Source: a virus. From it: a stretch of DNA of 64,000 nucleotides. This document shows, in pieces, positions 40,704 to 56,909 of this stretch (positions are counted from its first letter, which is position 1; each line of letters begins with the position of its first letter). The notes under the pieces were generated by a model. That model was not told the DNA's origin. It saw nothing but the letters and a program-made list of their open reading frames with translations, and ran no database searches. The stretch is from the IMG/VR virus record IMGVR_UViG_3300009000_000003; one strand, written 5' to 3'. Both the position numbers and the translations under genes were made by a program.

Positions 40704-41779
40704 AAAGCTCCTTTTTTTGTAGGTAAATGTGAGCCTAAATAATAGGTTTGAGAATCATTAAAATTAGTATTTCCGTAAGCATCTTGATAAATTACAGCAT
40801 AACCATTCATTGCGTTTTTAAATCTAAGATCAGGTTGGAATTGATAGGGAAGCTTATGAGCCATAGCCCCTTGCTCAATTAACATTTTTCCTGATACAAT
40901 TCCTTTATAAACTTTATGAGTATGCCCAACAACAATAGAATCAAAATCGTCGTAATGCATTCTTTCAGAAAAATGATCAAGTAATTTAACAACTGTAGCG
41001 CCAGGATATTTAGAGCCAAAACCACTAGGATGGCAAAAAATAGTTTTACCAACCCTAACATACCATGGATCATGTCTTTGATAGAGGACGTTATCGAAAT
41101 TAAGTTTTTCAATTAATTCTCCTCTGTCATTTAGTTTTTCACCATTGCTAATCTTAAACAATAGATCAGTACCAAATACTGAGCTAGCATCTTGATTAAA
41201 GCCTGCTTGTTTAACAGCTCGAGTAGTTCTATAATCATGGTTGCCGCATACTAATATTACTGTTTCAAAATGATCAGATAAGTAATGTACTAAATCAAAT
41301 GCTACTTTATATTCTTTTAAAGCAGCAATATTTTTGCTTTTAGAAAATGTACTAAATATATAAGCATCTAATATGTCGCCATTTAAAACAACAACATTAG
41401 CATCGGAATGCAAAGTTAAAGCAGCTTCCATATCTTCCCAAAGGAAAAATGGAACATGTAAATCACTAAAAGTAATGATTTTACGTTCTTTAGAAGTCGT
41501 AAGACCTAAATCTTTTTTAACAGATTTGGATCTATAGTCTTTAGTAGTTTTAATAATATAATCCCAAGAATCATTATAAGAAACAACGCTTTTAACATCA
41601 GGATCTCTAGAGATTTTATCTCTAGCAATCTTTCTGCGAATAGCATGTTCCGTTCTTTCAAAAGGAAAGCCTGGAACATTGTTTAAATGAAATTGAGAAT
41701 ATTTTTCTGCTAATTCTGAATTAGAATATTTGTTAATATTTTCAATTAGGAAGTTCTCTTCTTCAGGAGTCCACTTCAT
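40700..41779 (-). CDS. Calcineurin-like metallophosphoesterase with N-terminal HTH-like domain
   Basis: SDLH, NGDILD, GNHD and GHTH motifs; N-terminal WTPEEENFL helix. Confidence 0.85.
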   Translation of the reverse strand: MKWTPEEENFLIENINKYSNSELAEKYSQFHLNNVPGFPFERTEHAIRRKIARDKISRDPDVKSVVSYNDSWDYIIKTTKDYRSKSVKKDLGLTTSKERKIITFSDLHVPFFLWEDMEAALTLHSDANVVVLNGDILDAYIFSTFSKSKNIAALKEYKVAFDLVHYLSDHFETVILVCGNHDYRTTRAVKQAGFNQDASSVFGTDLLFKISNGEKLNDRGELIEKLNFDNVLYQRHDPWYVRVGKTIFCHPSGFGSKYPGATVVKLLDHFSERMHYDDFDSIVVGHTHKVYKGIVSGKMLIEQGAMAHKLPYQFQPDLRFKNAMNGYAVIYQDAYGNTNFNDSQTYYLGSHLPTKKGAL

Positions 41780-43022
41780 CTGTTTGTATTCTTTCTAAAT
41801 GTTTTAAAATTAATTTTATATCTGGATCTGTTTGTTCTACTTTTACTTTAGCTTTTATAATATCTGATTCTTTTAAACCAGTAGCTTTTATTTTTTCCCA
41901 TATAGAAGGAAACAATACAATCTCAGCACTAGCTGTAGAGTCATCTATTTCCATAAAAGCCATCATTTGTCCACGTCTAGTTTTAATTTCTTTTAACGAT
42001 AAAATTACTCCAGCTACTCTAGCATCTAAACCAGGAGTAAGTGAAGATAAATCTTCTTTATTAATTTGAATTAAATCCAAAGGATGACCGCCAATATAGC
42101 AGCCAATATAATTGGCTTGATCCATTATTTGTTTTAAAGTCAAAGGAACAAATTCTGTACGTTCAATTTCAGGAAAAGTAGGCTTTTCTTTTTTAGCTAA
42201 AGCAGGAAGCCTTTTTAATTTTTGATCTTCTAAATCTTGAAGCTCAGGTTCATAAATGTGAAGATTTGAAACATCTTCTTCTTTTTCTTTACCTTTAGAA
42301 ATACGATTAGTTATTTTTTTAACTTCATTGCGTAAATAATTACGTCTTTCAATTAAAGGTTCTACGCGCTCATTATGCCTTTGACGTTCTACATAGTCAA
42401 TTTCTCTTTGAGCATAATCTTCTAAATCTCTTACATATTGGTAAATACTAGAAGTATATTGAATCAAAGAATCTCGAGTATAACCCATTCGGTCAAAAGC
42501 ACCTGCATGGACTAAAGCTTCAAAAACTTTTGTATTTACTTTTTGTAAATTAACTCTATCGAGAAAATCTCTTACGCTTTTAAAAGGTAGATTACCTCTA
42601 GCTTTAATAATAGCTTTAGCTGCAGTTTTACCAACATCTCGAATAGCATTTAATCCAAAGTATATTTCATGATCTACAATGGTGAATTCATAACCGCTTT
42701 GATTAACACTAGGCGGATAAACATTTACATTAAAACGTTTGGCTTCATTAATATATTCAGGAGCTTTAACTGCCCAAGATTTAGGTTGTAAAGTTTTACT
42801 TCGAGTACTCATTAAGGCAGCAAAAAATTCTACAGGATAATGAGCCTTCATATATGCAGTAATATAAGTCAACATAGAATAACTTACACTGTGTGCTTTA
42901 TTAAAACAATTTGAAGCAACAAGACCATTAGCTAAAGTAAAATTATGAGTATTGGTGCTAGATGCAACACCAATATCATATACTTGTTGCTCTCCAAGAT
43001 ATTCTTTTTTAATAATTTTCAA
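41763..43022 (-). CDS. dnaE: DNA polymerase III alpha, part 3 (C-intein + fingers end, HhH, OB fold)
   Basis: TTG start; C-intein followed by CFNKAHSVSY, YMKAHYPVEF, FGLNAIRDVG, ALVHAGAFD, YIGGHPL and OB fold KTRRGQMMAFMEIDD. Confidence 0.95.
   Translation of the reverse strand: MKIIKKEYLGEQQVYDIGVASSTNTHNFTLANGLVASNCFNKAHSVSYSMLTYITAYMKAHYPVEFFAALMSTRSKTLQPKSWAVKAPEYINEAKRFNVNVYPPSVNQSGYEFTIVDHEIYFGLNAIRDVGKTAAKAIIKARGNLPFKSVRDFLDRVNLQKVNTKVFEALVHAGAFDRMGYTRDSLIQYTSSIYQYVRDLEDYAQREIDYVERQRHNERVEPLIERRNYLRNEVKKITNRISKGKEKEEDVSNLHIYEPELQDLEDQKLKRLPALAKKEKPTFPEIERTEFVPLTLKQIMDQANYIGCYIGGHPLDLIQINKEDLSSLTPGLDARVAGVILSLKEIKTRRGQMMAFMEIDDSTASAEIVLFPSIWEKIKATGLKESDIIKAKVKVEQTDPDIKLILKHLERIQTDEVDS
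42909..43022 (-). other. Split intein, C-terminal half (38 aa)
   Basis: MKIIKKEYLGEQQVYDIGV...HNFTLANGLVASN|CFN, closely resembling cyanobacterial DnaE Int-C. Confidence 0.95.
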
Positions 43023-43024
43023 AA

Positions 43025-43258
43025 TTAATCTTCCACTTTAATATTTAAATCAGACATTTTTAAAGGTCGACCAGAGTCGCCATGAAAAGAATAAAAAGTA
43101 ATTCCTTTAACATGGTTTTTTAATTTATCAAAACTATCAATTACAATATTTTTTGTTTCATAACCATCAGGAATATATTTAGTAGCATAAGTATTTATGC
43201 CACAAAGAGATCTTTGCCGATAGTATTTTGGATTTTTATAAGAAGCAATAATACGCAT
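43025..43258 (-). CDS. Hypothetical protein
   Basis: RBS AAAGGA; ends 2 nt before the dnaE part 3 start. Confidence 0.55.
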   Translation of the reverse strand: MRIIASYKNPKYYRQRSLCGINTYATKYIPDGYETKNIVIDSFDKLKNHVKGITFYSFHGDSGRPLKMSDLNIKVED

Positions 43259-43277
43259 AATATTCCTTTATTAAAAA

Positions 43278-43314
43278 TAAAAAAAGGGCAGCTTGAATAA
43301 ACAAGCCACCCTTT
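43278..43314 (-). terminator. Rho-independent terminator after the fibre cassette
   Basis: Minus strand AAAGGGTGGCTTG-TTTATT-CAAGCTGCCC followed by TTTTTTT. Confidence 0.8.
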
Positions 43315-43358
43315 AAAAACAAGAAATTACTTTATTTGTTAAAGTGTATTAGTTTTGA

Positions 43359-46300
43359 TTAAACTTGATACCAGTCGGTAGAATTAATTGCTATTAAACG
43401 TAAAGTTTGTTTAGCAGCTAAAGTTATTAAAGTTGCACTAGAGCTTTGACCAGACTCATAGATTACATCGTTCCCATCTGCTGATACGGTGATACTATTA
43501 CTATTAGTATTAATATAAATCATTTCTAACCCTTGAGATGCTGAAGGTAATGTAGCATTGCTAGAAGTAACGATAATATGATTACCTAAATCATATTTCA
43601 TCGTGCCTTCAAATTCAATCCCACTTGACCCGCCTGTTATTTTTGCTTGGGCTACAAGATTGCTTGAAATAATTACATCACTTGCAGACCCAGCACTTAT
43701 AGTTAAATCGCCTGAATTTGCATAAAGTTCTGGAGTAATGACGCTATCAGCAGTCAAGTCGCCACCAGTCAAAGTAGCAATACCATCTGTGAAAGTGCCG
43801 GAAGCTACTTTACTAAGATTTGCAATTTCTCTATTTGAATTAACTACAAGAGCTTTATTTGCAGCAGCAGTGCCATCAGTAATATCGTCAATTTTCTCTA
43901 AATCAGCTGCATCAAGAACAGCGCTACCTACAGTAATAGTAGTAGCAGAAATACTACTTGCTAAATCAAAATCAAGAGAATTTGTTGCACTATCTGCAGA
44001 AATAACAATGTTCCCTCTAGCTTCAGAAGAAAATATAACAGTTTGACCAAGATTAGGAGAAATAGTAAGACCACCAATACCTGCGCCAGTAGTACCTTTA
44101 ATAAAGAAACCAGAATTATCTAATTTGGCATTAGTAACACCACCATCTTTAATTTCTACAGAACCAGCTGTAACATCAAAATTAGCACCATTAAACTTAG
44201 CAACACCAAGAGTTGCCGCAGTAGCAGTTTCTACAGAAATAGAAAGCGCATCCGTATTAGCGTCATATGAAGTAGAGAGATTAGAAGTGGTTGCTCCACT
44301 TACAAGAGCTCCTGCAAGATCAGTTACTTCAGCATCAAAATCAGTAATTTGAGTATGATCAATACTAATATTTTGATGAGTAGCAGCTGTTAAACGACCT
44401 TGAGCATCAACACTAATAGACAAAGATTTAGAAGCTTCACCATAATCGCCCGCAGTTACATTTGTATTATCAAGTGCAAAAGAGACTTGATCATCGCTGA
44501 CTGTAGAAGTAAGAGCAGTTCCACCAACAAAAGTAAGAGTGCCACCAAGCAATGCAAGAGAATCCGCACCAGAATCACCTTTAAAAGCAAGGCTTGTAGC
44601 AACATCAGCAGTGCTGATACTGCGGACTCTACCACGAGTATCTACTTCAACTACAGGGATTTCAGTAGCAGAGCCATAAGTATCTGCAGTGAGGCCTGAA
44701 ATAGTTGCTAAAGCAATTGTAGCTGCACCATTTTCTTGGTTGCTATTAGCTAAAACAAAATCTGAATTAGAGCCGCTTTCATTAAGTGTAGCAACATAAT
44801 CACCAGTAGTATGAGTACCAAGATCAACTGAATCACTTTGCATTAATACGCTAACTGTAGCAGTACCAGTACCATTAGTAGTTACTGAGCCAGCCACATC
44901 ACCTGCAATAGCAATTGTAAAATTTGAAGCTAAAGCAGAAGCAGTGTCTGCATTCCCTTCAAGAGCACCACTAAATGTAGTTGCTGTAATTTTTTGCATT
45001 CCAGCAATAACAGTATTCGTAGCGCCAAGAGTGAGAGCGGTGCTACCTAAAGTAGTAATTGAATTAGCTAACTGAGCATTAGAAACGCCTGCAGCCTTAA
45101 TACTAACTGCGCCAGAAGTAACACTAAAATCTGAAGATGCAAATGAAGCTACACCCTTATTACTTTCAGAAGCATCTTCTGCAGCAACAGTAAGAGTATT
45201 AGCTACATCGTCATAAGTTAAAACAATAGCTTCACCTTGAGTAAGAAGATTGTCAACTCGATCGTCTACTCTTTCATCAGTGTAATAAAGATTAGTACCT
45301 TCTGCTAAATTATCAGTGCTGTGATTAGAGAGTGTGCTGATTTTACCTATAAAAGTAGTAGCAGTAACAGTATCAAATGTAACATCATCTGTAGTTCCTA
45401 CAGCCTGACCAATTGAAATTGTTGAAGAACCAGTAATTGTAATACCAGTTCCAGCTTCAAGAATGTTGTTTACTGCTGAAGGAAGATCAGAAAGTTTAGC
45501 AGAGTCAATTGTTGAATCAACAATATTTGCATTAGTAATAGTTCCAACTTTAAGAGTATCGGCGTCAATAAGAATAGACGCGCCATCAACATTAACACTA
45601 AGCTGACCATTAGTATCAGCTAAACCAGCACCGTCAAGTCCTGTAACTTTACTTGCAGCAATTTGACCATCAGTAAGAGTCAAAGTGCCTGTTGAAACAT
45701 CTAAAGCTTTTACTGTACCTAAAGAAGTTAATTCAGAACCTGCAAAGCTGTAAGTTCCAGCTGCAAAAGTACCTTCTGAAACCTTATTTGCAGGAATTTG
45801 ACCTGCAGCAAGAGTTAAAGTAGCAGCACTTACATCTAAAGTAGAACCATCAGCAACTGTAATATCTTTAGAAAGTAAAGCTTGTTCAAATTGAATTTGA
45901 GAGTCAGCAGTATCTAAAACGATATAATCTGAAGCTCCAGCAGAAATGCTCAAAGCGTCTTGTTTAGTTTCAGGAAGCTTAACAGTAAATTGAGCAGTAT
46001 CTAAAGCAGAACCATCAATAGTTAATTCAGCGTCATTAGATGCAATTACTGAAGAGCTAACAGTAGAAGCAGTCAAAGTAGAATCTAAAGAAACATTTCT
46101 AAAACCAGAAATATCTTTAGAAGAATCAACGACTACAGCAAGACCTTGAGAAACTGAACCAACAGTAACACCATCAAGTAAATTTAATTCAGAAGCAGTA
46201 GATGTAACTGCAGTTGCACCTAAAGTAATTCCTCCCTCAGGAGCAATAATTTTAGTTTTAATTGTACCTAAAGAAGCAGAACTAAAGTCAACTGTTGTGC

Positions 46301-46682
46301 CATCGCCGCTTAAAGGGTCAGTAGTAAGACCTTCAAACGTTTGCCAAACTTTATCGCTATCACTAGCATCGCGTGCAAAACCGCTATAAACTGGAGTACC
46401 ATCAGTATCTTCAGCACCAACAAGACCAATGTCAGCAGTAGTACCAGTATTAGTTTTACCTAATTTAATTAATGTTTCATCAACAGCAAGTTGAGAAACT
46501 GTAACTTCATTTGCATCTCCAGTAATCGTAAGATCGCCTTCAATAGTAACGTCACCTTTTGCAGTAAGGTTTACAGTATGAACGTCTTTCCAAGGCACTG
46601 TAGAAGTACCAAGTGTATCTTGTCCACCTTCAGCATAACTTGCACCTGAAGGTGCTGTTTTTTGTCTTAAGCTTGAAGCCAT
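43359..46682 (-). CDS. Long Thr/Ser/Ala/Gly-rich tail or capsid fibre protein (1107 aa)
   Basis: RBS AGGAG; fibre motifs TDNLAEGTNLYYTDERV, YG...VDTRGRV / VDAQGRL, and internally duplicated GVAxF...F.VT.G.V.IK..GV.NA.L. Confidence 0.75.
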   Translation of the reverse strand: MASSLRQKTAPSGASYAEGGQDTLGTSTVPWKDVHTVNLTAKGDVTIEGDLTITGDANEVTVSQLAVDETLIKLGKTNTGTTADIGLVGAEDTDGTPVYSGFARDASDSDKVWQTFEGLTTDPLSGDGTTVDFSSASLGTIKTKIIAPEGGITLGATAVTSTASELNLLDGVTVGSVSQGLAVVVDSSKDISGFRNVSLDSTLTASTVSSSVIASNDAELTIDGSALDTAQFTVKLPETKQDALSISAGASDYIVLDTADSQIQFEQALLSKDITVADGSTLDVSAATLTLAAGQIPANKVSEGTFAAGTYSFAGSELTSLGTVKALDVSTGTLTLTDGQIAASKVTGLDGAGLADTNGQLSVNVDGASILIDADTLKVGTITNANIVDSTIDSAKLSDLPSAVNNILEAGTGITITGSSTISIGQAVGTTDDVTFDTVTATTFIGKISTLSNHSTDNLAEGTNLYYTDERVDDRVDNLLTQGEAIVLTYDDVANTLTVAAEDASESNKGVASFASSDFSVTSGAVSIKAAGVSNAQLANSITTLGSTALTLGATNTVIAGMQKITATTFSGALEGNADTASALASNFTIAIAGDVAGSVTTNGTGTATVSVLMQSDSVDLGTHTTGDYVATLNESGSNSDFVLANSNQENGAATIALATISGLTADTYGSATEIPVVEVDTRGRVRSISTADVATSLAFKGDSGADSLALLGGTLTFVGGTALTSTVSDDQVSFALDNTNVTAGDYGEASKSLSISVDAQGRLTAATHQNISIDHTQITDFDAEVTDLAGALVSGATTSNLSTSYDANTDALSISVETATAATLGVAKFNGANFDVTAGSVEIKDGGVTNAKLDNSGFFIKGTTGAGIGGLTISPNLGQTVIFSSEARGNIVISADSATNSLDFDLASSISATTITVGSAVLDAADLEKIDDITDGTAAANKALVVNSNREIANLSKVASGTFTDGIATLTGGDLTADSVITPELYANSGDLTISAGSASDVIISSNLVAQAKITGGSSGIEFEGTMKYDLGNHIIVTSSNATLPSASQGLEMIYINTNSNSITVSADGNDVIYESGQSSSATLITLAAKQTLRLIAINSTDWYQV

Positions 46683-46704
46683 ATTTTTAATCTCCTGTTT
46701 TTAA

Positions 46705-49700
46705 TTATTCTGAATATCCAGTGAATATCGCATCACCTGTTGAAATGTCAATTTCAAAGTGTTTGTCTTCGTGTTTGATTGATTTGGAACCGAAGAACAC
46801 TAGATCTCCAGCACCAGAATTAGCAATTACTTCAGCTAAGTCAATCTCAAAAGGACCTAAATGACCAGAAATCTTAATAGTTTCTGGAAGATAAACAATC
46901 TTAGGACCAACTCCACTCCACTCTTGTTCTAAAAGACCACCATCTCTAGTATTCAGGGAAGCAATTTCTGAAACTAAGTCAACAACTTGAGACTGAGCAA
47001 TTTGAATATTTTGCAAAGTTGCAGAAGTGATCATACCATGAGAATCAAAAGCAAGACTTACAGTTTTAGCTGCATCATCTAAAGTTCCAGCAGTTACAGA
47101 ATTAGTAATACTAAATTCTTCATCACTTAAAGTAAGCCCAGAACCTGCAGTATAAGTTGTATCAGTATTCACAACAGTTTCAGTAGCTGTGGAAACTGAA
47201 GTAACGTGCCCATTGCTATCTAAAGTAATGCTTTGGATATAAGTTCGGTCAGAATTACTCAAGTTAAGAGTAGCCGCAACAATATCTGGGTGAGTAGTTA
47301 AATAACCTACGTTATTAACTAATTCAGATATATTATCATTAGGTTGCAAAGCAGAGTCAGCAGTAGTACCTTGAGCTGTAGTAGCATAGTTAGTTGAATC
47401 TGTATAGGCCGCAGTACCAAGCCCAAGAGCATTTTTCAGCGTTGTTTCAGCTGTAAGATCTGCATCAATAGCTGCTACAATTTCTTGTGCAGTTTGATCA
47501 GCAGTAGCTCCAGGTTCAATGCCAGCAACTTTATCGACTACAGTTTGTAAACCAGTAATAGCAGAAATAGGGTGTTGATCAGAAAGAGTTCTTTCAGTTA
47601 AAGCATCGTGGCTTGTAGCTGAGAATGCAGCATTAAGAGAAGATTGACGCCCTGAAAGCTGAGCAACAGAATTGATTTCACATTTATAAGCACCAGAAGT
47701 TTTAGCTTGAAGAACAATCTTGTAAAGAGGAACGAGCTCTGGAACAGAAAAACCTAAGTTAACAAACTCTTCAGCTTCAGCAGCGGCGACAGTTGTATAC
47801 TGATCGTGGCCCATCATCAATTTAATAGGATATGTAGAATCATTAGTAGCAACCATATAATAGCTGATATAATTGCCATTAGAAACGGTTGCTAAAGATC
47901 CAACATTATTAACAATTTGATTAAATTGAATACTAGTGGCATTTGCAAGCCAAGGAACACTAGTTGGTGAAGTTTGAACGACTGCTGAACCACTTTGGTG
48001 AATTACAGGAATTTCCGCATCACCGCTTAAAACTTGCTCATAAGGATTAGCTGAAGAACCATGCTGAATAACGTGTACAAGATCTTCATCAGCAATTGTA
48101 ATTTGACCTAAAGACAAAGTTACATCAGTGTCATCTTCTAATTGATAGCTAAGAGCGCCGCCACTTCTCCAAATAGCACCTACATCGAGGTGTTGAGAAA
48201 GATGCCATTGAGTATCTCTATGAGATGAGTGTCTTTCATCACCAAAAATAATTGCTTCGGAATTAGTAGCGTCCCAGTAAACATAAGCAACAAGTAAATC
48301 TTCAATTAACGAAGGATGTGCTCCAATAGCCAACTCTTGTAATGAATCTGTTGATGGATTATATTTAATATAACGACCACCAGCAGAATTAGTAATTTGA
48401 AGAGTTTTAGAAGAAGAAACAGTGATCTCTTGACCGCGATACCAAAGAGTAAATGAATCACCGACAGGTGACAAAGTAAAAGTGTTGGTAGAATTATCAA
48501 AAGAAAGAGATGAATCATCCCTGTTGGGGAAACCAGTCATATCTAATGTAATAGAGCCAACAGCCTCGAGAGCCTCTGAACTAGTTATAAAATCAGAGAT
48601 TTCAGAACTAATTTTAGAAGAAGACCATAAGCTATTTGCAGATACAACCGCATCATCAATATAGGTGTCAGCATTAAGACCTTGAGGACCTGTAGCACCT
48701 TGAGCTCCAGTTAGCCCTACAGGGCCAGTAGATCCCTGCGCACCAGTAGCGCCGGTAGGTCCTTGAAGACCTTGAGGGCCAACTTCACCCTGAAGGCCTT
48801 GTTCTCCCTGCGCTCCAGTCGGTCCTGCAAGACCTTGAGGCCCTTGTACCCCGGTAGGTCCTTGAGAGCCTTGTAGTCCTTGAGGACCTGTAGGTCCGAT
48901 TGAACCTGCAGCTCCAGTTGCACCTGTGGGTCCAACTGGACCTTGAATGCCTTGCTCACCTTGCGGGCCTTGCTCACCTTGGAGACCCTGAGGGCCTTGT
49001 GGCCCCGTTGCCCCAATCGCACCAGTATCACCAGTAGCTCCAGTAATACCTTGAGGCCCGGTTGGGCCAGTCAAACCAATTAAACCTTGAGGGCCTTGTG
49101 GCCCGGTAGCGCCAATCGGTCCTTGGATGCCTTGAATACCTTGCGGACCGATTTCACCTTGTTCACCTTGTACCCCCTGAAGGCCTTGAGGTCCTGTAGC
49201 ACCAGTCAAGCCAATAGAGCCTTGCGGCCCAACAGGGCCTGTTGGGCCTTGAATACCTTGTTCGCCTTGAGCCCCAGCCGGGCCTTGTTCACCTTGAGCT
49301 CCAGTAGGACCTGTAAGTCCGGTAGGGCCAACTGCTCCAGTAACACCAGCTAAACCTTGCTCACCTTGGGGGCCAGTAGGGCCTTGGATACCCTGAGCTC
49401 CTTGGGCCCCGGTGGGGCCAACAGGTCCTTGAATTCCCTGGTCTCCCTGAAGCCCTTGAGGGCCTTGAGGCCCTGTTGCGCCAGTTAAACCTGTAGGTCC
49501 AGTAGGGCCTGTAGCACCTTGTGGACCTTGAGTTCCTGCAAATTGTCCAAAATCACTCCAAGTAGTACCGTTATAAACAATAAGATGATTTGTTAAATCA
49601 TTAGTTAAATAAGAAATAGAAGTAGAGCGATTATCTAAAGTTACTACAACAAAAAATAAATTAGAAGTAGTAATGGTGTCATCAGATTCAATTTGAGTGA

Positions 49701-50556
49701 CAATAGTGTCGTTAAGCTCACCAGAATAATCAACATTAAAAGCTTGACCTGGGTCACCTTTAGGACCCGTAACTCCTGTTGGTCCAACAGGTCCCTGAAG
49801 GCCTGTTGTTCCTGCTAGCCCTTGCAAACCCTGAAGCCCTTGAGGGCCTTGAGCGCCAGTAGGGCCAATGGCACCAGTTGGGCCTTGCGGCCCTTGTGGA
49901 CCAATAAGACCTTGCGCTCCTGTAGGTCCTACGGGACCTTGGACACCTTGAATTCCTTGAAGACCTTGAGGGCCAACTTCGCCTTGTAAACCCTGCATGC
50001 CTTGAGGCCCCTGTGCACCTGTAGCACCTTGAGGGCCAGTTGGACCGATATCTCCTTGATCTCCTTTAAGGCCAGTTGCTCCGGTAAGTCCGGTTGGACC
50101 TGTAAGACCTTGCAATCCCTGAGGGCCTGTAGGGCCTCTTTGACCAATAGCCCCTGTGGGGCCTTGAGCTCCATCAAGACCGGATGCACCTTGAGGGCCA
50201 GCTTCACCTTGAGGCCCTTGTAGACCGGTTGGACCTACTAATCCTTGAGGACCAGTAGCACCCGTTGGTCCTTGTGGCCCAACTAAACCTTGAGGGCCTT
50301 GTAAGCCTTGAAGGCCTTGTGGTCCGGTTGGACCTTGCAATCCAGTAGGTCCCGAAGCTCCTGTTGGTCCTACTGGCCCAGTAGGACCAACAATACCTGA
50401 TCCGGCTCCTCCAATAGCAGTAGCAATTTTTGCATCAATATCGGCTTCAGGTAAACCAAGAATAATTTTACCATCTGCATCTTTTTGATTTGGCTTGTCA
50501 AACAGATTGTCTAAATCTAAAGACCCTCTGCGTAAGTCTGTTCTTCTATTAGCCAT
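46705..50556 (-). CDS. Collagen-like fibre protein (1283 aa)
   Basis: RBS AGGAG; two long Gly-X-Y blocks, then [10 protein letters not shown] and fibre-type C-terminal motifs. Confidence 0.85.
48673..49536 (-). repeat. Collagen Gly-X-Y block 2 (about 96 triplets)
   Basis: 9-nt periodicity encoding [15 protein letters not shown]. Confidence 0.9.
49741..50397 (-). repeat. Collagen Gly-X-Y block 1 (about 73 triplets)
   Basis: 9-nt periodicity encoding GPT/GPQ/GLQ. Confidence 0.9.
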
Positions 50557-50569
50557 CTATGTTCTCCTA

Positions 50570-50935
50570 TTAATCGTCTATTGAATATCTTGCAAGTAGA
50601 ACAGGAGTATCATCTGGACTAGCTTTTTTTAAACCTACATCCCAAACAAACTCGAAGGTACTAGAGCTTGTAATTCTGTAATCGCCTAAAGAGTCAGGAG
50701 TTTCTTGAGGAGAAAGTACCAAGCCATCTAAAGTAATGATTATGCTGTTTCTTTTAGCGGGAAATGGTAGCGTAAATAAAAACTTGCCATCAGGATAATC
50801 AACATCGTCATGTTCAGGAATCTGATCAGTAAGATCAAAAGTTCTAACAGTATGTTCTTGATTATAAATATTAACAGTATTTACTGTTATTGTAGAATTA
50901 TCTACTGCGACTAATTTTGGATAAACTGGATCCAT
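50570..50935 (-). CDS. Small virion structural (fibre-associated) protein
   Basis: RBS AGGAG; FTLP...IIITLDGLVL...GDYRIT..TFEF...LLARY beta-domain pattern. Confidence 0.6.
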   Translation of the reverse strand: MDPVYPKLVAVDNSTITVNTVNIYNQEHTVRTFDLTDQIPEHDDVDYPDGKFLFTLPFPAKRNSIIITLDGLVLSPQETPDSLGDYRITSSSTFEFVWDVGLKKASPDDTPVLLARYSIDD

Positions 50936-50944
50936 ATTTATCTC

Positions 50945-51316
50945 CTAAGCAGGTGTGTAAAAAATAGTGACGTCTGTTTGATCATTTATCAATGCTGTAT
51001 ATTCGCCAAGAATATATAACTTATTAAATTCACTATCTATATAAAAACCATCACCTAGCATAGATTCAAGTCTTGGAATAATGTCACCATTAATAAATAA
51101 CATTACAAATTTTTCAAAACCTTCCTTTATATAAGGGAAGATTTCATAAAATGAATCATTTTGATCAAATGAAGAAAAAGCTAAAGCTTTTTGTAAAGGC
51201 AAATTGTCTACAATATTTCCAACAGTAGTAGTTTTATCAACATTCAAAGTATCAATTGTAATGTTGCTATCAGAAATAACTGTAACGGGTGTTCTTGTTT
51301 GAGCATGAGTCGCCAT
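50945..51316 (-). CDS. Small virion structural protein, probable paralog of 50570..50935
   Basis: RBS GAGG; DSNITIDTLNV vs DNSTITVNTVNI; LFINGD...VTIFY. Confidence 0.55.
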   Translation of the reverse strand: MATHAQTRTPVTVISDSNITIDTLNVDKTTTVGNIVDNLPLQKALAFSSFDQNDSFYEIFPYIKEGFEKFVMLFINGDIIPRLESMLGDGFYIDSEFNKLYILGEYTALINDQTDVTIFYTPA

Positions 51317-51380
51317 ATAAACCTCGCCTTTTTGTTTAGTTTTAATATATTTTTGCTATTATTTTCAAGAGTATAGAAAA

Positions 51381-51698
51381 TTATATATTATCTTTTGTAG
51401 AAAAAATATCTATTTCTTTAGTAAATAATAAATCAATTGGGAGCATTTGATTATTAGAAGACATAAATTTATGGTCTTCTGTACAATCAACATAATCTCC
51501 ATTTTCTAAAGTGTATCTGTAAACAGTTTTAATACCTTTATCGTGCCATTGAGTGACTTGTTGAGCAACCCAAGGGGTAGCTTGAGTTGAATCATTACTA
51601 AGTACAAAACCAGAATATTGAGCTTTAACAATATCTTCAATAGTTCTAGATCTTTTTGTAAGAGTAGGAATTAATATTTCGGTATTTCCTGCTAAACA
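51381..51698 (-). other. Split intein, N-terminal half (105 aa)
   Basis: CLAGNTEILI...QWHDKG...YTLENG...CTEDHKFM...QMLPID..F..EIDI, resembling cyanobacterial DnaE Int-N (blocks A and B). Confidence 0.95.
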
Positions 51699-52997
51699 AT
51701 AATCAGCAAAACCTAAAATATCTTTCCAAAGATCTTTAGCATAGTCAGATAACAAGCCACCTACTTTTACAGAATTTTCTATAAATTTTTCTTCATATTT
51801 TTCAAGAACGGAAAGTTTTTTCTTACCCATAGCTCGTCGAACATCATCTGCTTCTTGTTGAGTAAAACCTGCTAAATCGGTAAATAATTTCATAATTTGT
51901 TCCTGATATATTAAAGTCCAATAAGAAGCTTTTAGAATTTCAGCAACTTGAAGAGGTAAATCTTCAGGCGGAGAATTATTTAATTTATTAGCAATATAAG
52001 TTTTATCAAGACCAGCTTGCAAAGGGCCAGGGCGGTTGATAGCACTGATAGCACTAAGATCCTCTATGCTAGCGGGTTGTATGTCATTAATTAATCGTTT
52101 AGCGGTACCGGATGTTTCCATTTGAAAAATACCAGTTAAACAACCTAAATTTAAATATTTATAAGCTAACTCGTCGCCATCTGGTATAGAATAAGGCTCT
52201 AAATCTATGTTGTAATTTTGTTTAATTAAATTTTTACATTCTTTGATAATAGATAAAGTGTCAATACCTAAAAAATCAAACTTAATAAGCCCAAGCTCTT
52301 CACATTCATCTTTATCATATTGAGTAATTCTTTCTGCTTTACTATTAGACCAAACAGGGACAGTATCATGTATTTCTTTATCTGAAATAATGACACCTGC
52401 TGCATGGATGCCAAAATTAGCAACCATGTTTTCTATTCTATCAGCAAATTCTAAAAAAGCAGAATATCTTTGATCATCAGAAAGGTCGGGATTTTCTTCA
52501 AGAACTTCTTCTAAAGTAGGTTCTTTGCCATACTTAGGAGGAGGAAACATTTTTAATAACTCGTTAAGTTCAGAAGAATCACCTTCGTGTATTCTATAAA
52601 AAGAACGAGCTAATGATTTTGGTTTAAAAGTTCCATGAGTTATAATATTGGCAACTCTCTCACGCCCCCAATAATCAATGCACCATTGTATTGCTTTCTC
52701 TCTATCTAAAGCATCATGGTCTATATCAATATCGGGAGTCGCACCCCCAATAGTATCTGATCTCATTTTATTAAAATCAAACACATCGGTAAGTCCAGTA
52801 ATATAAAGTAAAATACTATTATATGGATTTTCTAAAAAAGAATGTTTAGACTGTAAACAAGATTCAATTCTGTCTAAATCTTCTAAAGAAATCATAGCAA
52901 CTTCTTGATGGAGAAAATCTGGATCTACTTTTTGATAACGATCTTCAATAATATAAGAATCTATTTCTTTTAAAAAAGTTTCTCGAGATTTAAACAT
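51381..52997 (-). CDS. dnaE: DNA polymerase III alpha, part 2 (palm/thumb/fingers + N-intein)
   Basis: PDIDID, GIHAAGVII, LIKFDFLG, GIFQME, AINRPGP, IYQEQIM, RRAMGKKK, then FADY|CLAG. Confidence 0.95.
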   Translation of the reverse strand: MFKSRETFLKEIDSYIIEDRYQKVDPDFLHQEVAMISLEDLDRIESCLQSKHSFLENPYNSILLYITGLTDVFDFNKMRSDTIGGATPDIDIDHDALDREKAIQWCIDYWGRERVANIITHGTFKPKSLARSFYRIHEGDSSELNELLKMFPPPKYGKEPTLEEVLEENPDLSDDQRYSAFLEFADRIENMVANFGIHAAGVIISDKEIHDTVPVWSNSKAERITQYDKDECEELGLIKFDFLGIDTLSIIKECKNLIKQNYNIDLEPYSIPDGDELAYKYLNLGCLTGIFQMETSGTAKRLINDIQPASIEDLSAISAINRPGPLQAGLDKTYIANKLNNSPPEDLPLQVAEILKASYWTLIYQEQIMKLFTDLAGFTQQEADDVRRAMGKKKLSVLEKYEEKFIENSVKVGGLLSDYAKDLWKDILGFADYCLAGNTEILIPTLTKRSRTIEDIVKAQYSGFVLSNDSTQATPWVAQQVTQWHDKGIKTVYRYTLENGDYVDCTEDHKFMSSNNQMLPIDLLFTKEIDIFSTKDNI

Positions 52998-53060
52998 GTT
53001 AAACTTTCAAATAATAAAAAGATGGAAATTACCTAAAGTAAGAAACTGCAAAGGTGGTTG

Positions 53061-53405
53061 TTAAACCACCCAAGATTTGTTTAAATAATATTCAGGATTT
53101 TCTATAGATATATTAAATACTTGGGAAAGATTTTGTTTTTCTTGAATAGAAAATAATCTTTCGTTTAAAGAAAATAAAATTTGTAAAACTTTTTGAGTTT
53201 GACTATTTGCTTCACAAATAATTGTATAGTTAGCAGTCAAGTTATAAAGCAAAGCACTTATAATGTAGTTTGTTTCATTACCTACAAAAAATTTTGCACA
53301 TTTATAATTAGATTCGTCAGTAAAACACTTTTTTAAATTCTTAAATAAAGAACTTGTTGGATCTACATTTAAGTTAAAAAGCGAGTTATTTGTATCCATA
53401 TGCAC
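53061..53405 (-). CDS. Hypothetical protein between dnaE parts 1 and 2
   Basis: ORF track; no recognisable motif. Confidence 0.5.
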   Translation of the reverse strand: MHMDTNNSLFNLNVDPTSSLFKNLKKCFTDESNYKCAKFFVGNETNYIISALLYNLTANYTIICEANSQTQKVLQILFSLNERLFSIQEKQNLSQVFNISIENPEYYLNKSWVV

Positions 53406-53412
53406 CTGCTTG

Positions 53413-53640
53413 TTATCTTACAGATGTCCAATCTGTATAATTTGTAAAATCACATTTCATAATTTTAACATCAGTTCTCTGAGTTAATCTTCTGTAAGAT
53501 CTAGCATCAGATCTAGTAGTGTGTAATGTCCTACCTTTAATAGTTATAGGTGTATTTGTCGTTTGATCGACAACAGCATAAAGAGTGGTAGCACAAGTAT
53601 CTATAGGAGTAACTAGATTAGTCATAATTATTTCTTTCAA
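53413..53640 (-). CDS. Hypothetical protein between dnaE parts 1 and 2
   Basis: Overlaps the part 1 stop; may start at the internal MTNLV. Confidence 0.5.
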   Translation of the reverse strand: MKEIIMTNLVTPIDTCATTLYAVVDQTTNTPITIKGRTLHTTRSDARSYRRLTQRTDVKIMKCDFTNYTDWTSVR

Positions 53641-54947
53641 AAAGGTAAAGTAAACTGATCTGCTTGCTCAGCCATTTGTTTATTAAAAATAAGAGGGGTA
53701 GCAGCACGACCCTCATTAAGAAAACGAGAAAACATAAGATCGTATTTAATTGGATCAATTTCAGTAATGCCTAAAGACCAGGCTACAAGAGAACCAGCAG
53801 CAGAACCTCGACCGGGCCCATGCATTACTCCATAATCTCTAGCACCATTCATAAATTGAGAAACAATTAACATATAATCAGAAAAACCCATACGTTTAAT
53901 TACATTTAATTCATGATCAAGCCTATCTCGATATTCTTGAGGAGGCATATCATTAAACCTATTGTATAAACCGTGTTGAGATTCTAAAGTAAGGAATTCA
54001 AAACTTTTATAAGTTTCTGGAAGATCTTGAAACTTAGGATAACGGTTCATTCTATCCATAAAATAAGTTTCATTATCTATCAAATCAGCTACATGAACTG
54101 TATTAGATATGACGTCGTAAGGCATATTTTGTTGGTTAGCTTCATTCCAAGTCCAATCATGAGATGCAAAATGAACATCTATTGGTCCGAAACTAAATCT
54201 TTTTTCATCAGAAAGTACAGTTTTAGTTTGCATACACAAAGCGGCTTCATGATGTTGTTTATCATGTTCATGAGTGTAATGACAATCACATGTAAGTACC
54301 ATAGGTAAATTATGTTTAGAAGCAATTTCTTGCAAAACTTTATTTACAGCTTGTTGCTCTTCATCTTTATGGAGTTGAAGTTCCACAAGAAATCTATCTT
54401 TAAACATTTCTTTATGATGTAAAATAAGATTTTCTGCGGCTTTTTTCTCACCCATAAGGATGAGTTGACTTGCTCTACTACCCAAACAAGTAGTGGTAGC
54501 AATAATACCTTCAGAATATTGAGCAATAAGAGCATCATCAATACGTGGTTTACGATACATACCTTCAGTATAAGCATAAGAACTGAGCTTCATGAGGTTA
54601 TGTAAACCAATATTATTTTGAGCTAACAAAATCAAATGATAATAAGACTTGCCTAAATGGTCAGGTTCTTTTGCAGTTCTATCATTTATAGTATAATAAG
54701 CTTCCATACCGATAATTGGTTTTATATCTTGTTTTTTACATTCTTTATAAAATTTGTAACTACCTGATACATTACCATGATCTGTCATCGCTACAGCAGG
54801 CATACCCATTTGTTTTGCATAAGCAGGAAGCCTATTAACTTTATTAATTCCATCTAAAAGACTATATTCTGTATGTACATGCAAATGCACATAAGGCTTT
54901 TCAGACGGATTCTGATGTTGGTTTTGATGATTGCATGTCGTTGCCAT
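53637..54947 (-). CDS. dnaE: DNA polymerase III alpha, part 1 (PHP domain + N-terminal palm with GRGS)
   Basis: HLHVHTEYSLLDG, TDHG, GMEAY, YHLILLA, KPRID, TCLG, CDCHY, GPGRGSAAGSLVAWSLGITEIDP, FSRFLN. Confidence 0.95.
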   Translation of the reverse strand: MATTCNHQNQHQNPSEKPYVHLHVHTEYSLLDGINKVNRLPAYAKQMGMPAVAMTDHGNVSGSYKFYKECKKQDIKPIIGMEAYYTINDRTAKEPDHLGKSYYHLILLAQNNIGLHNLMKLSSYAYTEGMYRKPRIDDALIAQYSEGIIATTTCLGSRASQLILMGEKKAAENLILHHKEMFKDRFLVELQLHKDEEQQAVNKVLQEIASKHNLPMVLTCDCHYTHEHDKQHHEAALCMQTKTVLSDEKRFSFGPIDVHFASHDWTWNEANQQNMPYDVISNTVHVADLIDNETYFMDRMNRYPKFQDLPETYKSFEFLTLESQHGLYNRFNDMPPQEYRDRLDHELNVIKRMGFSDYMLIVSQFMNGARDYGVMHGPGRGSAAGSLVAWSLGITEIDPIKYDLMFSRFLNEGRAATPLIFNKQMAEQADQFTLPF

Positions 54948-55341
54948 TTAATAAATTGCTTTCTTTTCCAGTACACACAAGCTTAAAATGTTCAAAGTAA
55001 TTGGGTTGCTCTTCAATTAAAGCACGTAAACCCATCTTACCACCAGTGCAAAGAGTTTCTTCTTCACTTGTCGTGGGATTTTGCCACTTTACTGCAGAGC
55101 CAGCAAAACGAACAAAACCCATGTCTTTTGCAAGACCAATGACATCCATGATTTTATCAGTGCCTTTAGCACATTCAAATTCAAATTCAGCTACTTTATT
55201 AAGAGCTGGAGCAACTTTGTTCTTAACTATTTTTACTTTCATAGCCAAAGTATTAGGAGAGTCAGAGCTAGGCTTAGAACTAACCCTGAGCCTAACAGAA
55301 GCGTAAAATGGAATAGCATTGCCACCTGAAGTTGTTTCTGG
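54901..55341 (-). CDS. recA: RecA exon 2
   Basis: PETTSGGNAIPFYASVRL, VKIVKNKVAP; in frame with exon 1 after intron removal (spliced product about 355 aa). Confidence 0.92.
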   Translation of the reverse strand, partial: PETTSGGNAIPFYASVRLRVSSKPSSDSPNTLAMKVKIVKNKVAPALNKVAEFEFECAKGTDKIMDVIGLAKDMGFVRFAGSAVKWQNPTTSEEETLCTGGKMGLRALIEEQPNYFEHFKLVCTGKESNLLNGNDMQSSKPTSESV

Positions 55342-56282
55342 CACGAAACTCCACAAGTTTACCATACTTGTGGCGTGGACTATATCTTCATCTTTCTCTC
55401 GAAAGAGCCTTGCGCTTGGGGAACGTACCAATCTCATTCCCTACTCTACTCACTTCCATCTTTCGATGTGTTTTCGATAGTCTCTACACCTTCCTCTATT
55501 AAAGAGGCTTGGCACGGTATTGCCCAATAAATGGAGGGGTTCACCGTTAGCCCGTAATGGACACCCACTGGTAGTGGTTCACAAGGTTTTTTTCCTAGAG
55601 TCGCCTCTAGGGGAAACCGTAGAAACTGAAGTATAGTTTCTTTAGCAGTGTCAATATTCTCTTCTAATATAACGCAATAATGATAACCCATAGAAGTTAG
55701 CTCTTTGATTTTTCTTTGATCACTCTTCTTTTGTTTTTCGAAAGAGTGAGCCCAAGAGCCATGAATATCTATACAATACTTTTGACCAAGATAAAAATCA
55801 ATAGACCATTGATTAATTCGTTTTTCATAGATATAAGCTAAATCTAATTCATCTAAAATTTCTTTAAGCTTTTCTTCTAAACGATTCATGGAAACATTTC
55901 TTCTAACAGAAACGCCCATGGCTTTTCTTTTGTGGCCAACAGCAGATTCACTACAGCCCCAAAGATCAGCTAGTTTAACATGGCTAAGATAAGGGTCTTT
56001 AAGCATTTGGATAGCTTCAGGAGTATTGGGAATTTTCTTACGATACATACGTTGTCTTTTTAAACCTAAGGCTTTTAAAAGACGGTAAACTGTTTCGTCA
56101 CAAAAATTTAAATACTCTTGAAGTTCTGTTAATTTCATTAAATTGTAATTCTTTTGAACAAATTGAATTTGTTCTTGAGTAATTTCTTTATTAAAAGTGA
56201 CACCGTTTATAGTAGTTGACATATAACCTCCTGTAAAGTTGGCATATAGTAAACTACACAAAACAATACTTATTTCAAGTTA
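55342..56282 (-). mobile_element. Group I intron (941 nt) in recA
   Basis: Exon 1 ends in U (GGA AAU) and the intron ends in G before CCA GAA. Core elements: P-like AACGGTGAA, Q-like AATACCGTGCCAAG, R GTAGAGACTAT, S AAGATATAGTCC (P7), P3 CCTTGTG/CGCAAGG, P9 CCACAAGT..ACTTGTGG. IGS GTTTCTACGGTTTCC at 55612-55626. Confidence 0.93.
55446..56222 (-). CDS. Intron-encoded homing endonuclease, Vsr-like/EDxHD type with N-terminal HTH-like repeats
   Basis: RBS GGAGG before the ATG at 56222; LEEKL...IDFYL...IDIHGSWAH...SDQRK...GYHYCVI. Confidence 0.8.
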   Translation of the reverse strand: MSTTINGVTFNKEITQEQIQFVQKNYNLMKLTELQEYLNFCDETVYRLLKALGLKRQRMYRKKIPNTPEAIQMLKDPYLSHVKLADLWGCSESAVGHKRKAMGVSVRRNVSMNRLEEKLKEILDELDLAYIYEKRINQWSIDFYLGQKYCIDIHGSWAHSFEKQKKSDQRKIKELTSMGYHYCVILEENIDTAKETILQFLRFPLEATLGKKPCEPLPVGVHYGLTVNPSIYWAIPCQASLIEEGVETIENTSKDGSE

Positions 56283-56909
56283 ATTTCCGTACATGACACC
56301 AATATTCATGCGAACTTGGTTAATAAATAAATATAAACAATCATGATCTACACTAATTTTGCTAATAGCTCGGAGAGCTTTAGAAAGTAATCTAGGTAAA
56401 TCACCAACGCCCATCTCATTCATAAGTCGTTTAGTATCTCGTTCTGATTGAGCAGCGTCAATAGAGTCAAATACAATAACGCCTACTTTACCAGTCTTGC
56501 CAAGATCTTGGCAAAGCTGAAGCGCTTCTTCAGCAGTATCAGGGTAACAGAAAACCATACGATCAGGGTCGATTCCCATAGACTTAATAAGATCTAAACC
56601 AGTAGTACGCTCTAAATCTACAAATACTGGGACTCTATCGTAACCATAAGTATCTACATAAGACTTAACGATTTGAAGGCAAAGACTAGTTTTGCCAGCG
56701 CTTGGAGGACCAAATATTTCTACAACTCTATCTGAAGGTAAACCTCCGACACCTAAAGCAGAGTCAAGAGTTACAGAACCTGTAGAAATTGCTTTTACTT
56801 TTTCATACTTTGGACCAAGAGAAATAGAATCTTCTTTGCCAAACTTTTTACTAATACTATTAGCAATTGCATCAATTTCTGGAATACCTGTAATTTTTTT
56901 AATTGCCAT
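56283..56909 (-). CDS. recA: RecA exon 1
   Basis: ISTGSVTLDSALGVGGLP, EIFGPPSAGKT, VFDSI, FINQVRMNIGVMYGN. Confidence 0.95.

Follow-up and report, generated by a model that had tools for sequence, protein, structure and literature searches.

How a single family-C DNA polymerase (DnaE, the alpha subunit of DNA polymerase III) could be assembled from three separate genes is the question raised by the window analysed here, a stretch of 64,000 nt from the IMG/VR virus record IMGVR_UViG_3300009000_000003. The source is an uncultured phage with a genome of ~155 kb, in which DnaE is distributed over three minus-strand open reading frames (ORFs), an arrangement shared with a large group of relatives. 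Part 1 encodes a first polypeptide, chain A, while parts 2 and 3 encode the two pieces of a second, chain B, and carry the halves of a split intein. The reading that we consider probable is a DnaE of two non-covalently associated chains that share one composite active site, with chain B having secondarily become trans-spliced.

In this proposal, the replicative family-C polymerase of the phage would be a heterodimer. Chain A would provide the PHP domain (probably for proofreading), the thumb, and the GS-motif and arginine residues that hold the triphosphate of the deoxynucleoside triphosphate (dNTP), and chain B the three catalytic aspartates, the fingers, the helix-hairpin-helix (HhH) and the oligonucleotide-binding (OB) fold. 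The chains would be made separately and dock non-covalently, so that the active site of the palm would be a composite of both. A C-terminal tail on chain A and an N-terminal head on chain B, probably remnants of a partial tandem duplication with complementary decay, would cap the broken ends and probably help to hold the chains together. In the sub-lineage of the window, a DnaE-type intein would later have invaded chain B and split, leaving parts 2 and 3 to be trans-spliced into a chain of 814 amino acids (aa).

Layout and break points of the three-gene DnaE

A preliminary description of this DNA had read one DnaE collinearly over genes of 436, 538 and 419 aa, with the PHP domain and GRGS in part 1, the PDIDID and KFD motifs and an N-intein in part 2, and a C-intein, HhH and OB fold in part 3. 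The ORFs lie in those places (Table 1), and Pfam, NCBIfam and alignments agree with the assignment: PHP, thumb with GS motif, palm, fingers, HhH and OB are all present in DnaE order. Pfam places the PHP domain and positions 3-102 of PF07733 on part 1, the latter match ending at aa 418; positions 100-260 of PF07733 on part 2, starting at aa 86, together with the fingers and a weak intein match; and HhH_6 and OB on part 3. Since the two PF07733 halves abut, nothing is missing from DnaE. Part 1 aligns with residues 2-402 of E. coli alpha and aa 86-435 of part 2 with residues 398-756, so the A/B break falls exactly at the proline preceding the first catalytic Asp.

Chain A contains the PHP residues H23, H25, D32, H57, E82, H104, C154, D221 and H223, as well as R408 and R414; its core stops at the proline that usually precedes the catalytic Asp and is followed by a tail of 18 aa. 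Chain B opens with a head of 84 aa in which D25, D27, E32, N57, N60, S61, L64, F73 and R79 are invariant. Neither the tail nor the head, both of which go beyond the preliminary description, has a counterpart in single-chain DnaE. Whereas the palm of family C DnaE is one polypeptide, it is split across two genes in every member of the clade seen. Contigs from independent studies span the junction between parts 1 and 2 (X3 51493-56331, with four differences; X4 52741-55706, with one difference), so the layout is not the product of misassembly, the artefact against which the preliminary description had cautioned, and the same three-gene layout occurs in many independent contigs.

Conservation and modelling of a proposed composite palm

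The motifs that would meet in the active site are conserved on both chains: all of 102 chain-A sequences carry GRGS, R408 and R414 unchanged, and all of 79 chain-B sequences carry D89, D91 and D241. In the E. coli and Taq structures, the GS motif and these arginines hold the dNTP triphosphate. Residue D241 we take, from its motif, to be the counterpart of E. coli D555. That the key motifs are intact had been put forward earlier as an argument against decay, and it holds up: the catalytic and PHP residues are conserved, and purifying selection extends across all parts. In two complete relatives (G001, 158 kb; G003, 162 kb), PF07733 occurs only as the two halves, and a search for other polymerases covering these two genomes found neither PolA nor PolB and detected no other polymerase. 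The three-gene DnaE is real and conserved and probably functional.

Folded alone from a 79-row alignment, part 2 yields a head with a predicted local distance difference test (pLDDT) score of 82-95, a catalytic strand at ~50 and a predicted template modelling score (pTM) of 0.38, and it superposes on E. coli alpha with a Z score of 9.7 and a root-mean-square deviation (rmsd) of 11.8 Å. Chains A and B were modelled with AlphaFold by reading through in frame from part 1 across the spacer into part 2, with glycine for the stops and an unpaired alignment; this read-through is a modelling device with an artificial linker rather than a proposed product, and alignments that misplaced chain B rows (A7-A9) were left out of the folding. 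In the resulting model the spacer is disordered, the catalytic strand reaches pLDDT 70-80 and the tail helix 84, and short beta bridges occur at residues 416-417 of A and 82-83 of B. The model superposes as one body on residues 2-610 of E. coli alpha (Z 42, rmsd 4.0 Å, 585 residues). As modelled, A and B fit together as a canonical DnaE core, a result that speaks to their compatibility and not to binding.

Probable separate chains at junction 1/2

The A/B break is common to all clade members examined, and a search of related phage genomes for the same break points, as suggested in the preliminary description, recovered it in all close relatives, intein-split and intein-free alike. The ratio of non-synonymous to synonymous differences (pN/pS) is 0.26 for the chain A tail (aa 415-425) and 0.33 for the head (aa 57-84), compared with 0.26-0.37 for the cores, with synonymous sites saturated; as tail and head resemble the cores, both flanks of the break evolve as protein under purifying selection. 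The gap between the two genes varies widely, from -1 nt in L146, where stop and start overlap, through 7 nt in L138, 77 nt in L128 and 639 nt in the window, to 7,428 nt with six genes inside in L149, and opposite-strand genes lie within it in L126 and L127.

At the A/B junction no match to RF00028 was found in the window or in L002, L005-L007, L127, L128, L138, L146 and L149, while Rfam does detect group I introns elsewhere in the same loci (66.8 bits in L007; three in L135). The two small ORFs of the window spacer gave no match in a family search, and no endonuclease lies between parts 1 and 2. That junction 1/2 has neither an intein nor a visible intron, as the preliminary description stated, thus agrees with the Rfam search, and separate translation of chains A and B is the simplest reading. 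The further step taken there, a proposed active site built in trans from two polypeptides, is supported by the conserved flanks, the variable gaps, the lack of a detected intron and the structure model taken together.

Probable trans-splicing at junction 2/3

Both intein halves are recognized by NCBIfam above cut-off, intein_Nterm at aa 434-512 of part 2 and intein_Cterm at aa 14-39 of part 3. Through the intein, parts 2 and 3 align with the cyanobacterial DnaE-N and DnaE-C families (PRK09532, PRK07373), so both the insertion site and the geometry of the split are cyanobacterial. Cys1, the block B TxxH, the block F HNF, the terminal Asn and Cys+1 are all present in the window intein. The insertion lies at the F-A-x-Y/C-F-N-K site (here and below a slash within a motif marks the point of interruption), and the native extein context FADY/CFN is kept. 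C434 and the terminal C-intein residues N38 and C39 do not vary, T506 and H509 hardly do, and the halves match the Npu and Ssp structures, with ~39-41% identity to the Npu halves in structure alignment.

Splicing would unite 433 and 381 residues into a chain B of 814 aa. In the intein-free relatives P0089, P0091 and P0095, the same chain is encoded by one ORF of 803-812 aa with FADYCFNK at the site, and the phosphoesterase gene that lies directly 3' of their chain B also follows part 3 in the window. Among intein-split relatives, the halves lie 2.8 to 13.5 kb apart. Given the intact intein motifs at the cyanobacterial site and the intein-free relatives of matching length, parts 2 and 3 are very likely joined by protein trans-splicing, as the preliminary description had anticipated.

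Origin of the head and order of events

A profile of the head matched 73 of 1.84 billion proteins, in every case starting within the first 30 residues; about 20 of these are forms of 790-930 aa, mostly intein-free chain B, and cultured phage records gave no match. In single-chain DnaE, the thumb/GS-helix segment that lies upstream of PDID aligns collinearly with a diverse head profile (hhalign 24.4, E 0.0008), a score reached by none of 100 column shuffles (mean 11.5, maximum 18.5). The best, if weak, head match lies near GRGS in 34 of 78 single-chain proteins; MAFFT repeatedly aligns the head to the end of chain A with S61/S386, R79/R408 and P88/P418 in register; and the ESM feature neighbours of the head at 0.90 include short PF07733 proteins. 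With moderate support, the head is probably a decayed duplicate of the thumb/GS-helix region. It would have arisen through a partial tandem duplication in which copy A lost DID and copy B lost GRGS.

In a quick tree, from a search that was unfinished, the intein-split group of the window (support 97) nests among intein-free chain-B sequences, with same-site split forms at three further points of the tree and another intein site, FNK/S, used in two branches. This topology suggests that the A/B break is probably older than the intein, and the most economical account would have fission first and repeated intein invasion later. A broader account, in which a clade-wide full-size family-C polymerase was split by partial duplication and complementary decay, its head and tail forming a reciprocal clasp and one or two orthogonal split inteins further dividing chain B, is plausible and put forward only tentatively.

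Alternative explanations

The unspliced junction admits of other readings. Chain B might be self-sufficient, its head replacing the GS helix, with chain A acting as a proofreading or accessory subunit like epsilon and keeping GRGS for another purpose. The head indeed echoes the GS-helix segment in register (T70/T395 in addition to the pairs above, with R79 invariant) and folds confidently alone. It lacks GRGS, however, whereas GRGS, R408 and R414 are invariant on chain A; chain B alone models with a disordered catalytic strand, whereas the A+B model fills residues 2-610 of the E. coli enzyme with PHP and palm in register, and we regard this alternative as unlikely. That parts 1 and 2 are joined into one chain at the level of RNA or translation (by an intron that escaped detection, by trans-splicing, or through ribosomal bypass or a frameshift), whether or not tail and head are retained, is very unlikely. 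Introns are frequent in the clade and target the catalytic motif, lying right after PPD in L135; the phage Satyr has an apparent intron at PD/ID, and Rfam can overlook introns. Yet the chain A tail and chain B head evolve as protein, the gap can measure anything between -1 and 7,428 nt and sometimes includes opposite-strand genes, and the upstream stretches covered in L135 (5.5 kb) and L140 (1.5 kb) yielded no chain A gene. Because the first intron of L135 follows PPD, the head there is exon 1 of chain B, and no fused protein with an internal head was found, a search for longer head-carrying proteins being empty, which is weak evidence.

At the other junction, the intein halves might not splice and merely form a second non-covalent clasp. 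The C-intein lacks a net positive charge, with three basic and three acidic residues. Npu IntC, by contrast, is net positive. The splicing residues are invariant or nearly so, as noted, and the extein context is native, which makes a non-splicing intein highly improbable. The pieces could, lastly, belong to a decaying or accessory polymerase, with the host replicase doing the work: no beta-clamp gene (PF02767) was found in G001 and G003, and no clamp-binding motif is obvious by eye in part 3. Purifying selection across all parts, conservation of the catalytic and PHP residues in about 80-100 homologues, and linkage of the dnaE genes to primase-helicase, RecA and ribonucleotide reductase (RNR) genes with no other polymerase detected leave this explanation scarcely credible.

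Several points weigh against a non-covalent two-chain enzyme and its proposed history. The A+B model is covalent, with an artificial spacer of 213 residues and a shallow alignment of 28 rows; AlphaFold has seen DnaE structures, and the two folds compared used alignments of different depth (79 and 28 rows). Rfam misses some group I introns, the window recA intron and the probable Satyr intron being undetected. The head-duplication signal is weak (HH probability 25%), and a comparison of the head with chain A itself, using shallow profiles, gave no significant signal. The tree search was unfinished, and with intein-split rows at four separate positions, some branches may have lost the intein.

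Comparison with known systems

The closest precedent for junction 1/2 in this enzyme family is the minimal Pol III alpha of group 2.2 jumbo phages, which is split, intein-free and encoded beside a family B polymerase (Iyer et al., 2021; PMC7824862). [quoted passage not shown] The window shares this intein-free break between the NTP-binding and Mg2+-binding subdomains (here RFLN..R / PDID), a likeness seen at the level of subdomains, and PHROG 11127 (171 aa) terminates at this same RFL motif. Unlike that minimal form with its family B companion, the window enzyme is full-size, with PHP, fingers, HhH and OB, bears a split intein together with the conserved head and tail, and belongs to a clade in whose complete relatives DnaE is the sole polymerase detected.

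Mechanistically, the best model for junction 1/2 is ribonucleotide reductase NrdA-a/NrdA-b of phage Aeh1, an essential enzyme in two unspliced polypeptides that needs the additional C- and N-terminal tails flanking its break in order to be active (Crona et al.; PMC3045599). Extra conserved tails flank the break in both systems, though the enzymes differ, and the Aeh1 tails stem from insertion of the mobE endonuclease, whereas the window head and tail look like decayed DnaE duplicates with no endonuclease in the A-B gap. The split gp43 of T4-like phages (Petrov/Karam, as cited in PMC2677866) likewise makes a phage replicative polymerase from two genes, but of an unrelated family (family B) and fold, with no additional split intein mentioned.

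At junction 2/3, the intein agrees with the cyanobacterial Ssp and Npu DnaE inteins in its site, in the length of its halves (N ~105 aa, C ~36-38 aa) and in SN/CFN. It differs in being phage-encoded, in splitting only chain B of an already two-chain enzyme, and in having halves 8.4 kb apart around tail-fibre genes and only ~39-41% identical to those of Npu. Split-intein dnaE in phage-like metagenomic loci was described by Dassa et al. (2009; PMC2677866). Those fractured genes resemble L138, L140 and L149, which carry a free LAGLIDADG gene between the intein halves, and differ from the window, which has no endonuclease gene there; the three DnaE intein sites given differ from the cyanobacterial site used in the window, and no intein-free palm split is seen in the passages covered.

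Single-chain DnaE (E. coli 2HNH, T. aquaticus 2HPI, M. tuberculosis 5LEW) shares the domain order, motifs and predicted fold, but is one polypeptide without head or tail, with 39 aa from GRGS to PD in most examples compared. By analogy, junction 1/2 of the window enzyme may work in the manner of Aeh1 NrdA and junction 2/3 in that of cyanobacterial DnaE, but the window system departs from defining features of the Iyer, Dassa and Aeh1 classes. The preliminary description had known of no account of a three-part architecture. Neither that form nor a full-size two-chain DnaE with a head was found in the literature searched, most subscription journals lying outside its coverage, but a Pol III alpha split at the same functional boundary had already been described (PMC7824862). 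Each of the two assembly principles is thus known from earlier systems, which makes the novelty smaller than was held.

Implications

If the two-chain reading is true, the clade would possess a full-size replicative polymerase of family C whose active site is naturally composite, and in which nucleotide binding and metal catalysis could be assigned to the palm halves and the coupling of the PHP proofreading domain to synthesis probed. Its active site would have been divided via partial duplication and complementary decay, a route unlike the endonuclease-driven one in Aeh1 NrdA. Natural DnaE-type split inteins ~40% identical to Npu can also be drawn from the clade, among them the L149 pair, which must work side by side across a four-residue extein. 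The system may also bear on the origin of the cyanobacterial split intein.

Features of the window and gene neighbourhood

Table 1. Elements of the split dnaE locus in the window (E. coli catalytic Asp numbering from PMC3919608)
Feature	Position	Strand	Content
dnaE part 1 / chain A, 436 aa	53637..54947	-	PHP, thumb, GRGS
GRGS motif, chain A aa 379-382	53802..53813	-	invariant in 102 chain-A homologues
Chain A C-terminal tail, aa 419-436 (18 aa)	53637..53693	-	LIF in place of DID; predicted helix
Chain A-chain B spacer, 639 nt	52998..53636	-	two small co-oriented ORFs; no intron signal
Spacer ORF, 75 aa	53640-53413	-	homologues in relatives
Spacer ORF, 114 aa	53405-53061	-	homologues in relatives
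dnaE part 2 / chain B N-precursor, 538 aa	51381..52997	-	head, catalytic palm, fingers, N-intein
Chain B head, aa 1-84	52746..52997	-	helical module, N-terminal everywhere
PDIDID, D89 and D91	52719..52736	-	align with E. coli D401, D403
KFD, D241	52275..52283	-	motif of the third catalytic Asp
N-intein, 105 aa	51384..51698	-	FADY/C; block B TxxH (T506, H509)
Cassette between intein halves, 8,358 nt	43023..51380	-	ORFs of 123, 121, 1283, 1107, 77 aa
dnaE part 3, 419 aa, TTG start	41763..43022	-	C-intein, end of fingers, HhH, long predicted helical insert, OB fold
C-intein, 38 aa	42909..43022	-	HNF ... ASN/CFNK

The gene neighbourhood is phage-like, with baseplate J, primase-helicase, RNR and RecA. 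An identical part-2 protein is encoded on a contig of 154,609 nt and near-identical DNA is present in estuary and marine runs, while no close cultured phage was found. A promoter and terminator scan stayed at chance level, and TCCATC upstream of chain B is not a recurring element within the window.

Within the cassette, the ORF of 1283 aa encodes a collagen-like tail fibre; the cassette ORFs have tail-fibre or no family matches, and a homing endonuclease was not found among them. The two large cassette genes (43359-50556, minus strand) have a G+C content of 37-52%, against ~30% in the flanks, and are the most variable stretch among near-identical genomes. In part 3, a long charged and probably helical insert (aa ~190-290; 42150-42450, minus strand) between HhH and OB sits where bacterial DnaE has its clamp-binding region. 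Variable extensions rich in His and Cys, possibly metal-binding, occur on the chain A tails of relatives (e.g. P0175, P0186, P0198) and at chain A N-termini (window aa 1-15).

[quoted passage not shown] Its ORF of 271 aa (56261-55446) has weak helix-turn-helix and DUF559 matches and resembles the Vsr-like endonucleases reported in recA introns in PMC2677866. A homologous intron in L007 scores 30.7 bits for RF00028, and recA is uninterrupted in L001-L006.

Variants in relatives and other phages

L149 (1229-20398 of a 178-kb ENA contig) has a four-gene DnaE that uses both intein sites. Its order is chain A; chain B with N-intein 1; an ORF of 132 aa in which C-intein 1 and N-intein 2 enclose the four-residue extein CFNK; then a LAGLIDADG gene; and C-intein 2 with the C-terminal part. 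Two trans-splicing steps would restore FANY-CFNK-SHA. An independent three-gene form in L138 (10001-13667) and L140 (1508-5068) has its split intein at FNK/S with the free LAGLIDADG gene between the halves. In L146 (9382-19382), the genes switch strand after chain B with the N-intein, and the C-terminal part is not within 10 kb.

Introns add further breaks. A group I intron in part 2 between SAIN and RPGP (L007:10960-12200) raises the number of ORFs to four in that phage. In L135 (5552-10583), chain B has three group I introns (81, 64 and 62 bits), two of which carry LAGLIDADG ORFs, the first lying immediately 3' of PPD in the catalytic motif. About 15 further head-only proteins of 80-125 aa end at PD, which suggests a common intron site.

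The cultured phages Catera, NootNoot, Limpid, PIS 136 and Y1 have a single-chain DnaE. In Lactobacillus phage Satyr (L148:2578-7484), DnaE is annotated as two genes broken at PD/ID around an endonuclease-like gene of 220 aa, and the break gave no Rfam match. The halves of this Satyr/Maenad pair, which is possibly PHROG 7513/13169 plus 12219, join cleanly at PD/ID; the break is probably an unannotated intron and is therefore not counted as a precedent. Unrelated viral DnaE genes are broken elsewhere, either in an insertion after RFLN around a GIY-YIG gene, with no Rfam intron (L028/L029:7516-12004), or just after the PHP domain (L010:3896-8522).

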